Of a stretch of DNA of 64,000 nt, positions 48,168 through 48,366 are shown piece by piece. The stretch lies in NCBI GenBank assembly GCA_018241125.1, contig JAFEEL010000023.1:3813-67812 (forward strand), read 5' to 3'. A program made the translations under genes and the position numbers. This DNA comes from Pseudomonadota bacterium (lineage in GTDB: Bacteria > Pseudomonadota > Gammaproteobacteria > Xanthomonadales > Xanthomonadaceae). The number at the start of each line of letters is the position of its first letter. Position 1 is the stretch's first letter. Below the pieces are notes generated by a model. The model was not told the origin of the DNA. It did no database searches and saw only the letters and a list, made by a program, of their open reading frames with translations.

Positions 48168-48366
48168 ACGGGAGACGGGAGACGGGAGACGGGAGCGGGG
48201 AAGCGTGGATCGGCAGCCGTGAGCCGTGAGCGGTGAGCGGTGAGCGGGGAAGCGTGAACCGGCAACCGTGAGCCGTGAGCGGGGAAGCGGTCAGCGGTCA
48301 GCGGTGAGCGGGAGACCGGAGACCGGAGACCGGAGACCGGAGAGCGGAGAGCGGGGAAGCGCTAAC
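48168..48366. repeat. Heptanucleotide array, 26 units in one unbroken register (48171-48352)
   Basis: Segmented by hand: (GGAGACG)3 GGAGCGG GGAAGCG TGGATCG GCAGCCG TGAGCCG (TGAGCGG)3 GGAAGCG TGAACCG GCAACCG TGAGCCG TGAGCGG GGAAGCG (GTCAGCG)2 GTGAGCG (GGAGACC)4 (GGAGAGC)2. Confidence 0.95.

Follow-up and report, generated by a model that had tools for sequence, protein, structure and literature searches.

The 64,000-nucleotide stretch of contig JAFEEL010000023.1 considered here (the window; 67% G+C) carries a family of tandem arrays with a repeat unit of seven nucleotides, one of which, the focal array (A6), lies between rpoZ and spoT. The arrays (A1 to A13; Table 1) appear to belong to the G-rich heptameric repeat class already known from Xanthomonas and typified by the unit GGGAATC. 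They are excluded from open reading frames (ORFs), strictly polarized, co-variant where they form paired arms, and expanded to a level that is specific to the lineage. In our judgement they are probably self-perpetuating slippage products, an expanded and diversified form of the Xanthomonas-type class that is tolerated in the zones of untranslated regions (UTRs) and filtered for orientation. We consider them largely parasitic or near-neutral DNA, and neither a dedicated machine nor a helical-phasing device.

The initial annotation, made from the letters of the sequence, had proposed a window-wide family of period-7 arrays, and both Tandem Repeats Finder (TRF) and a lag-identity scan recovered every site that it had listed. 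At a strict threshold the scan of the whole window returned 13 merged period-7 arrays (829 bp), a few runs with periods of 6, 9, and 12, mostly in coding sequence, and none with periods of 4, 5, 8, 10, or 11. The 25 raw period-7 runs compare with a mean of 0.07 and a maximum of one in 100 dinucleotide-preserving shuffles. In total, heptad arrays account for 1017 bp (approximately 1.6% of the window), make up no less than 9% of the non-coding part, and occur at a density of about one array per 5 kb. The number of units ranges from approximately 5 to 27, with no mode at four, and the higher-order periods vary among the arrays (14, 21, 36, 49, and 71). A CRISPR (short palindromic repeats, clustered and regularly interspaced) array was ruled out; these are contiguous 7-mers without spacers, whereas in CRISPR arrays repeats of 24–48 nt alternate with unique spacers that are about as long.

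Of the 13 arrays, 12 lie outside coding sequence or reach no further into it than the terminal codons, as had been stated for those first listed; the single coding exception is A4. Since a conservative gene call makes at least 83% of the window coding, the 12 arrays fall within at most 17% of the DNA (binomial P ~6e-9, by our own arithmetic), so that the comparison of coding with non-coding positions which had been suggested for the whole genome shows, within the window, a clear non-coding enrichment. Gene boundaries were fixed by Pfam, tblastn, and Rfam, together with a separate test that used stop codons only. A gene caller based on G+C at third codon positions (GC3) was kept out of the distance statistics because it missed Pfam-confirmed genes and over-extended starts.

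The rule that governs placement is one of polarity: be the nearest ORF boundary a start or a stop, it is the 5′-end of the G-rich strand that faces it. Every array has a G-over-C skew of 0.25–0.65 on one strand, and the 5′-end of that strand lies, for each of the 12 non-coding arrays, 0–45 nt from a functional boundary. Seven are adjacent to a stop codon (A1, A3, A5, A7, which overlaps the end of its ORF, A9, A11, and A12), four to a start (A2, A6, A10, and A13), and one (A8) to the 5′-end of a cobalamin riboswitch. The statement that most arrays begin at stop codons is therefore correct for seven of 12, but it does not describe the four at starts, to which the focal array belongs, or the one at the riboswitch. 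A9 conforms once the small PilZ-like ORF that ends shortly before it is recognized. An automated test on related loci, which used only the stop codons of ORFs with high GC3, gave 18 stop-adjacent arrays that obey the polarity and none that violates it, at approximately eight to nine distinct genomic positions. Replication direction was ruled out as the control of orientation, because arrays occur in both orientations in a window whose GC skew is slightly negative throughout.

The genes that border the arrays include spoT, rpoZ, and those for transketolase, ETF-QO, amidase, PepP, PepQ, a HemN-like protein, and RidA. Phase-variation contingency loci were rejected on this ground: housekeeping neighbors such as spoT, transketolase, ETF-QO, PepP, and PepQ are not surface, antigenic, or restriction-modification genes, and arrays also occur after stop codons. 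No intrinsic terminators were found near arrays in the 45–64 kb part of the window, and the notion that the arrays are simply expanded terminator stems was discarded for this genome for want of such terminators adjoining them.

Comparison of strains shows how the arrays change. An exact look-up of RpoZ led to two contigs from metagenome-assembled genomes of the same species (97% and 99% identity) and to several short read-assembly contigs; sequences compared with the window are numbered below with the prefix L. Over approximately 19 kb compared, the indels in heptad arrays measured +7, +7, +42, +21, and 20+1 (=21) nt. Elsewhere, non-coding sequence differs by a copy of a 52-bp repeat, one unit of a 12-nt repeat, and three indels 1–2 nt long, all in or at the edge of a zone of 12/85-bp repeats at 45608–45871; the remaining indels, of 3 and 6 nt, lie near each other in one coding region. 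The flanks of the arrays are conserved between conspecific strains. A8 has three extra units (+21 nt) in L001, and at least four alleles of the focal array occur in samples that do not differ in RpoZ or in the flanks, including one that lacks the GGTCTCC block entirely and a fourth, markedly different, in L003 and L010. Copy number is thus variable among close relatives (by 7, 21, and 42 nt), where the initial annotation had allowed that it might be invariant. Arrays gain and lose entire units, singly or in blocks, as is characteristic of replication slippage or of in-register unequal exchange, and the differences between strains are the classical unit-register behavior of a variable number of tandem repeats (VNTR). 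Because change is by whole units, the 7-nt period and the register persist and point mutations spread into blocks; selection is not needed to account for either the conserved register or the block-wise drift of the units. Seven of eight short read-assembly contigs with rpoZ (Logan contigs; L003–L008 and L010) end inside the focal array, from which it follows that arrays break short-read assemblies.

The focal array illustrates these points. It lies 149 nt downstream of the stop codon of rpoZ (48805..48509, −), and the 5′-end of its G-rich strand is 37 nt upstream of the ATG of spoT (48124..45971, −); as this strand is opposite to both genes, the sense transcript is the C-rich strand (51% C, 21% G). 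The units form blocks: GGGAGAC (four copies), GTGAGCS, GGGAAGC, GGTCAGC, GGAGACC (four copies), and GGAGAGC (two copies). Identity at a lag of 7 is 0.76, against 0.30–0.33 at lags of 5, 6, 8, and 9, and the motif GGAGAC, found at either end of the array 140 nt apart, has not changed phase (position mod 7 = 4). The single register claimed for 26 heptads at 48171–48352 is therefore real and extends over about 27 heptads at 48162–48359. Phase-locking does not hold for all arrays, as A2 has slipped three times by +1, nor is a special significance of the register supported, given that strains differ by multiples of seven and slippage preserves it. The higher-order repeat also exists, although TRF places its unit at 49 bp (7 × 7; 2.1 copies, 89% matches), and the 35 bp first described are the part common to both copies.

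A SpoT-based scan took one genome per species and covered 62 Lysobacterales loci (1.1 Mb) and 18 Coriobacteriia loci as controls. The source is an uncultured Lysobacterales lineage, the nearest species representatives of which have 84% SpoT identity. At the strict threshold, period-7 arrays were dense in no taxa other than this species, L011, and some of the Luteimonas clade, and none was found in the 18 control loci. In the SpoT tree, taxa rich in arrays are interspersed with sisters that are poor in them. Seven taxa that the strict detector scored as array-free (L029, L032, L045, L069, L044, L017, and L012) have degenerate arrays or two-unit remnants, and because these stand at the same spacer, the seeds of the arrays are old, with lineages differing in the degree of expansion and not in strict presence or absence. 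The Luteimonas-type rpoZ–spoT spacer consists of the stop codon, (GGGAATC)n, an intrinsic terminator hairpin, (GATTCCC)n, and the start of spoT; L011 has nine copies of GATTCCC at the position of the focal array. The spacer of the present clade lacks the intrinsic terminator that its Luteimonas relatives have there. Unit variants of the window recur elsewhere, GGGACTC in L021 and GTGATTG in L024.

The units themselves have diverged to different extents. Those of A1 (GGGACTC) and A9/A10 (GTGAATC) are one substitution away from GGGAATC, a closeness matched in 1–2% of cases by column-permutation nulls, while those of A5/A7/A8 (GAGGACR), A12, and A13 (GGGTAGC) do not fit GGGAATC or GGGANTN. Pooled position weights of the heptad units read G, G/T, G, A, N, N, C. 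In A13 the period shifts near 63950 from 7 (GGGTAGC/GGGTAAC) to 6 (GGTAGC), with the loss of one G per unit. What persists throughout is the period, together with strand bias and outward polarity. The motif G3N1-7 × 4, indicative of G-quadruplexes, occurs in five of the 12 non-coding arrays (A1, A2, A3, A6, and A13) and is absent from seven (A5 and A7–A12). As these seven keep the same period, polarity, and placement, G-quadruplex potential cannot be what unites the arrays in this lineage.

The window contains two convergent inverted pairs, A7/A8 and A9/A10, and most arrays are unpaired; A11 (62380) and A12 (62528) are not complementary and form no such pair. The arms of each pair evolve in concert, since in this genome the duplexes formed by own pairs (−63 and −46 kcal/mol) are far stronger than those of cross-pairs (−18 and −14 kcal/mol), and since the unit has changed jointly in both arms in L056 and L047. 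The preference of arms for their own partner is also seen in L024. Selection for a stem in the sense RNA, as judged from the asymmetry of G·U versus A·C pairs, was unsupported; the antisense fold is the more stable in 11 of 15 spacers. Possibly the co-variation of the arms arises through template-switch correction at the level of DNA, or the pairing is useful on both strands. The last unit of A10 carries the GAGGA Shine–Dalgarno sequence of PepQ. The A7/A8 hairpin occupies the entire space from the stop codon of the HemN-like gene to the cobalamin riboswitch (RF00174, 79.9 bits; 53738–53931, +), which lies upstream of a gene for a TonB-dependent receptor (~54032..55888). No sigma-70-like promoter was found between that stop codon and the riboswitch, so that transcription of the riboswitch may depend on read-through out of the gene that precedes it.

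Taken together, a history of the following kind would account for the arrays. They would descend from a founder unit of 7 nt, the slipped loops of which, being 7 nt long, would escape mismatch repair. Arrays that shift the reading frame would be purged from ORFs, leaving survivors only in the free zones of spacers, that is, from a stop codon to the central signals or from these signals to the next Shine–Dalgarno sequence and start. A filter tied in some way to transcription or translation would then retain arrays whose G-rich strands read outward. As an outcome, the outgoing transcript would begin G-rich and the incoming transcript would be C-rich and unstructured, and spacers with arrays at both ends would acquire complementary, co-evolving arms able to form hairpins of 30–45 bp. 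Effects on transcripts in cis (altered UTR length, hairpins at cistron borders, C-rich leaders) would be side-effects.

Several points weigh against this explanation. Pure neutrality leaves the strict polarity unexplained, most clearly in the stop–stop spacers (A1 and A11/A12); a filter acting on mimics of the Shine–Dalgarno sequence is insufficient because polarity is also seen in these spacers, where such a filter cannot act, and no mutational mechanism was found that would set polarity at both gene ends. The sharp differences in expansion between sister lineages that keep remnants suggest a lineage-specific factor, and the persistence of arrays at the same spacer across genera could reflect selection. 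The enrichment of transcript ends at the repeats (Rehm et al. 2015, PMC4692102) hints at function. Among viral contigs, (GGGAATC)3 was present in 3 of 2.9 million, a raw count without host normalization, and this rarity, together with the reported absence from Xanthomonas plasmids, is unlike what simple slippage by the host polymerase predicts.

If the arrays do have a function, Rho-dependent termination offers a candidate. A polymerase about to enter an ORF, be it a sense polymerase at the 5′-end or an antisense or read-through one at the 3′-end, would first make a C-rich, G-poor, and unstructured RNA resembling a Rho utilization (rut) site, with copy number tuning this gate; transcription would continue only if a ribosome were present at the start codon 6–45 nt downstream, antisense or uncoupled read-through would be terminated, and paired arrays would add a long insulating or processing hairpin. 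We regard this model as unlikely, even though a single rule, obeyed by 12 of 12 window arrays and by 18 arrays to 0 in the relatives, would cover both gene ends and the stop–stop spacers. The C-strand RNA of unpaired arrays is C-rich and G-poor (43–61% C, 13–27% G) and folds weakly (−0.04 to −0.28 kcal/mol/nt, where the genome as a whole gives −0.42 ± 0.07), which are generic properties of Rho-loading RNA; A2 lies at one end of this range (61% C and 13% G on the + strand), while A1 is only mildly C-rich (45% C, 27% G), and the latter, like the shortness of some arrays (34–49 nt), argues against the model. The 6–45 nt between upstream arrays and starts, and the lack of intrinsic terminators both in the rpoZ–spoT spacer, where Luteimonas has one, and near arrays in the 45–64 kb part, fit a gate, and a signal based on composition would be compatible with the tolerated turnover of units. 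Hypervariability and patchiness among sister taxa would be unusual for an important control element, and the mirror-image model, in which G-rich RNA or R-loops act at the exit, fits the polarity equally well. Moreover, we know of no Rho subunit spacing that 7 nt would match, which also counts against a gate. In its favor is the finding of Rehm et al. 2015 (PMC4692102) that transcript ends of X. citri are enriched at such repeats. In its broadest form, which we think quite unlikely, the arrays would be a genome-wide, orientation-coded insulation bracketing every ORF with Rho gates and kept expanded by a lineage-specific trans-acting factor, and polymerases on their way out of an ORF would begin with G-rich RNA. 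If this were true, the factor would explain why sister lineages with the same seeds do not have long arrays, and a composition-based signal would explain how period, strand bias, and polarity are kept in spite of an unrestrained turnover of units.

It has also to be considered that non-B structures, i.e., a G-quadruplex on the G-rich strand, an i-motif on the C-rich strand, and cruciforms at the pairs, modulate transcription or replication, as has been suggested for Xanthomonas. Rehm et al. 2015 (PMC4692102) showed that oligonucleotides of GGGAATC form G-quadruplexes and i-motifs in vitro and that four units are preferred; the five arrays with the motif named above would be candidates, and a G-quadruplex-aware fold stabilizes A2 and A3. 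The complementarity of the arms on both strands, with no advantage for the sense RNA, is compatible with pairing of DNA. The seven arrays without the motif that nonetheless follow the same rules, and the unit counts of ~5–27 with no preference for four, make this a decidedly improbable general explanation.

Very unlikely, in our opinion, is an iteron-like role, in which each heptad would bind one subunit of a protein, such as a ribbon-helix-helix protein of the omega/ParB type, a nucleoid-associated protein, or an RNA-binding protein, the presence or absence of which would explain the patchy distribution. There is a precedent in pSM19035 parS, where at least four contiguous heptads, direct or inverted, bind protein (PMC9499535), and both the lineage-specific expansion and the loose common core G-G/T-G-A are in keeping with it. 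A single consensus, as in the parS sites of omega/ParB or the TTTTGAT of ToxR, is lacking here, since units differ between and within arrays (GGGACTC, GAGGACR, GTGAATC, GGTAGCG, and GGAGACC); the sites would number in the hundreds beside unrelated housekeeping genes with 5–27 copies each, and no candidate cognate protein was identified.

Highly improbable, too, is descent from mobile elements of the REPIN (repetitive extragenic palindrome doublets forming hairpins) or MITE (miniature inverted-repeat transposable element) type, that is, from a palindromic element with heptad arms that was seeded at gene ends and remodelled by slippage. Convergent pairs do have a loop or terminator between them, the arrays lie between genes and at gene ends, the phylogenetic distribution is patchy, and the use of one unit type throughout the genomes of Xanthomonas and Luteimonas suggests dispersal from a founder. 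Against this, loops and termini are not conserved between pairs within the genome, complementarity between pairs is poor, most arrays are unpaired, no target-site duplications were seen, no transposase is encoded among the window ORFs adjoining arrays, and no association with mobile elements was reported by Rehm et al. 2015 (PMC4692102); the orthologous positions across genera imply long residence and not recent insertion.

Finally, the proposal that three units (21 bp) equal two helical turns, and that a repeatedly presented face for bending or docking keeps the register under selection, has next to no chance of being right: the focal array does hold one register over 140 nt, but its lag-21 identity (0.59) is below that at lag 14 (0.67), so that there is no 21-nt superperiod, the higher-order periods differ among arrays, A2 has slipped, and alleles that differ by 1, 3, and 6 units do not conserve the face presented.

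Table 1. Heptad arrays of the window and the hairpins predicted for the two inverted pairs.
Feature	Units	Position	G-rich strand	Setting
A1	(GGGACTC)x15	1921..2036	-	Between convergent genes; 3 nt after amidase (-) stop 2040-2042, 32 nt after stop of ABC_trans_aux (+, ends 1888)
A2	~27 units, GGGGAGC/GGGAGAC type	3717..3905	-	Divergent spacer; three +1 phase slips; G-strand 5′-end 45 nt upstream of ETF-QO (+) ATG at 3951
A3	GGGAGCR/GGGAAGC/GGGACTC	23129..23217	-	Overlaps BatD (-) stop 23215-23217; directly after 55-bp x4 repeat
A4	Degenerate short heptads (CAGGGAG CGGGGAG CAGGGAA CAGGGAC...)	25491..25560	-	Gln-rich low-complexity tail of BatC-like VWA/TPR ORF 24957..27050 (-); not in the initial annotation's list
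A5	GAGGACR/GACGACG	45903..45978	-	Begins at spoT (-) stop 45971-45973; G/A-rich strand is the coding strand
A6 (focal)	~27 heptads	48162..48359	+	Between rpoZ and spoT
A7	(GGAGGAC/AGAGGAC)x5	53559..53594	+	Last 18 codons of HemN-like radical-SAM ORF 52353..53612 (+); left arm
A8	GTCCTCC on + strand	53685..53733	-	Right arm with A7; G-strand 5′-end 4 nt from cobalamin riboswitch start 53738
A9	(GTGAATG/GTGATTC)x6	58672..58716	+	6 nt after stop of PilZ-like ORF 58321..58665 (+); left arm
A10		58746..58779	-	Right arm with A9; G-strand 5′-end 6 nt upstream of PepQ ATG (58786)
A11	GAGTTNN, weak, 75% matches	62380..62428	+	11 nt after PAS histidine-kinase (+) stop at 62368
A12	Weak, 75% matches, C-rich on + strand	62528..62570	-	Abuts PepP (-) stop 62571-62573
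A13	GGGAGAT/GGGTAGC	63908..64000	+	11 nt upstream of PepP (-) start 63896; cut off by window end
A7/A8 hairpin		53545..53745		90-nt loop; RNA fold -88.5 kcal/mol, z = -5.5
A9/A10 hairpin		58660..58790		~30-nt loop; RNA fold -63.5 kcal/mol, z = -6.5; base touches PepQ Shine–Dalgarno sequence

Some of the neighboring sequences deserve mention. The Gln/Ala-rich tail of the BatC-like protein that harbors A4 is encoded by tandem repeats of 15 nt (nine copies, 98% matches), 18 nt, and 30 nt at 25235–25604 (−). The PilZ-like ORF before A9 (58321–58665, +) specifies 114 amino acid residues with the motifs RRKPRR ... GNLSESG; its ATG overlaps the stop codon of a DUF1631 gene (ATGA), which suggests translational coupling, and an exact look-up of the protein in a protein collection gave no record. 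A 2666-residue ORF at 7052–15052 (−) has a coding-like GC3 of 0.81 and no Pfam match at E ≤ 1e-5. In L001, a PIN/VapC and HTH_17 pair, apparently a toxin–antitoxin cassette, lies at 5269–6308 between the HemN-like and Ham1-like genes; it is absent from the window (~52333–52353) and from L002.

Longer repeats are present as well. Tandem repeats of 55 bp (four copies) and 52 bp (three copies), at 22900–23117 and 49642–49795, respectively, have in common the 16-mer CTCACCACGAACGGGA, which occurs eight times in the window, where 0.03 copies are expected by chance, including an inverted copy at 22773–22788, and which among all the loci fetched is confined to this species. The 55-bp repeat stands directly beside A3, and the 52-bp repeat has one additional copy in L001. 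An 85-bp repeat (1.9 copies; 45698–45870) contains internal 12-nt units (CGCCCTCACGCT) and a palindrome, CCCTCTCCCGAAGGGAGAGGG, that resembles repetitive extragenic palindromic (REP) sequences; a similar palindrome, CCCCTCTCCCCTCGGGAGAGGGG, is found upstream of transketolase at 22606–22645. The spoT–ridA spacer measures 456 nt in the window and L001 versus 614 nt in L002.

Heptamers have been known since 2007 to be over-represented in large GC-rich bacterial genomes and in cyanobacteria. The present arrays bear on the question of why a class that serves in the typing of plant pathogens by multilocus VNTR analysis (MLVA) has a period of 7, lies at gene ends, and follows a strand rule; for this question the lineage, with its diversified units, offers a natural test case of unusual density. 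Here period, strand bias, outward polarity, and arm co-variation outlive the loss of GGGAATC and of G-quadruplex potential; since the rules survive both losses, the viable explanations narrow to those based on composition and orientation (Rho loading, R-loops, or hairpins). The patchy expansion points to a lineage-specific determinant. In practical terms, arrays at gene borders interrupt short-read assemblies and are ready-made markers for strain typing.

Among known heptamer systems, the heptanucleotide simple sequence repeat (SSR) upstream of hmw1A/hmw2A in Haemophilus influenzae (PMC8262952; PMC12721329) resembles the window in its promoter/5′-UTR location and in copy change by slippage, and affects expression through transcript structure and processing. 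It is restricted to a few contingency loci for surface adhesin genes in a host-adapted pathogen, whereas the window arrays probably represent hundreds of loci, involve housekeeping genes, and occur at both gene ends. The TAACTGA repeats of Beggiatoaceae, Cyanobacteria, and Bacteroidetes (MacGregor 2015, PMC4679880), for which a post-transcriptional role was proposed, are likewise heptamers, located only a few nt upstream of the starts of unrelated genes in a patchy set of taxa, but they consist of one conserved, AT-rich, stop-containing unit in 2–6 copies, with no post-stop or inverted-pair rule described.

The heptamers of cyanobacteria, comprising the short tandemly repeated repetitive (STRR) sequences of Calothrix and GGGGA(C/T)T of Nostoc PCC 7120, are genome-wide and mostly intergenic, as here, and the units GAGGACR/GGGGACA of A5/A7/A8 and L011 are near the cyanobacterial GGGGACT. 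They have the same distance and strand distribution as those of Xanthomonas (Rehm et al. 2015, PMC4692102). They differ in belonging to an unrelated phylum with AT-richer genomes, and in a Nostoc preprint a regulatory role is only speculated. The initial annotation was correct in stating that short repeats of about this size abound in Xanthomonas and are used in MLVA, and the MLVA-14 scheme indeed employs tandem repeats of 7 bp or less (PMC4045669). The MLVA loci of Xanthomonas citri (PMC4045669) and Xylella are the same physical objects, with a very high rate of unit gain and loss, but that work treats them as markers only and does not address placement, polarity, or function.

The X. campestris genome measures roughly 5 Mb. 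The closest match is to the SSRs of Xanthomonas, of which Rehm et al. 2015 (PLoS One, PMC4692102) described 186 and 183 GGGAATC-type arrays in X. campestris and X. citri, respectively. Between 89% and 93% of these are intergenic, at a mean distance of 28 nt from the 5′-neighboring ORF; within ~50 nt the G-rich strand is the coding strand after stops and the non-coding strand before starts, and there are 70–75 convergent inverted pairs. Array length varies between species at conserved positions, arrays are absent from plasmids, and there is no link to particular gene classes or mobile elements. In addition to the G-quadruplexes and i-motifs formed in vitro, these authors found that in X. citri the repeats coincide with transcript starts or stops more frequently than controls do, and concluded that the function “remains to be elucidated.” By their account, the over-representation of heptamers was first noticed by Mrazek et al. 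2007 (PNAS), who proposed that the period corresponds to the length of DNA held at the active site of the polymerase. The literature on the motif and on STRR mechanisms yielded no accepted function, and Huang and Mrazek (2014) nothing specific to heptamers, in agreement with the earlier remark that no functional explanation was known; the accompanying impression that density and placement were undescribed is not supported, as enrichment between genes, gene-end placement, the strand rule, pairs, and inter-strain variability have been published for Xanthomonas and Nostoc.

The window arrays agree with those of Xanthomonas in the period, the G- and C-rich strands, the intergenic location, the polarity, the presence of inverted pairs, and the variation in copy number; the neighbors are housekeeping genes in both cases, the bacteria belong to one order, and Luteimonas relatives and L011 have the identical GGGAATC in the orthologous spacer. 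They differ in that units are diversified within and between arrays, the G-quadruplex motif, which Rehm et al. use to interpret the family but which the repeat class does not require, is kept in only five of 12, the modal length of four units is not seen, most arrays are unpaired, and the density (about one array per 5 kb) exceeds that of Xanthomonas about fivefold (X. campestris, 186 arrays). What is new in this lineage is the density, the diversification of units, the partial loss of G-quadruplex potential, the co-variation of arms, and the patchy expansion among sister lineages.

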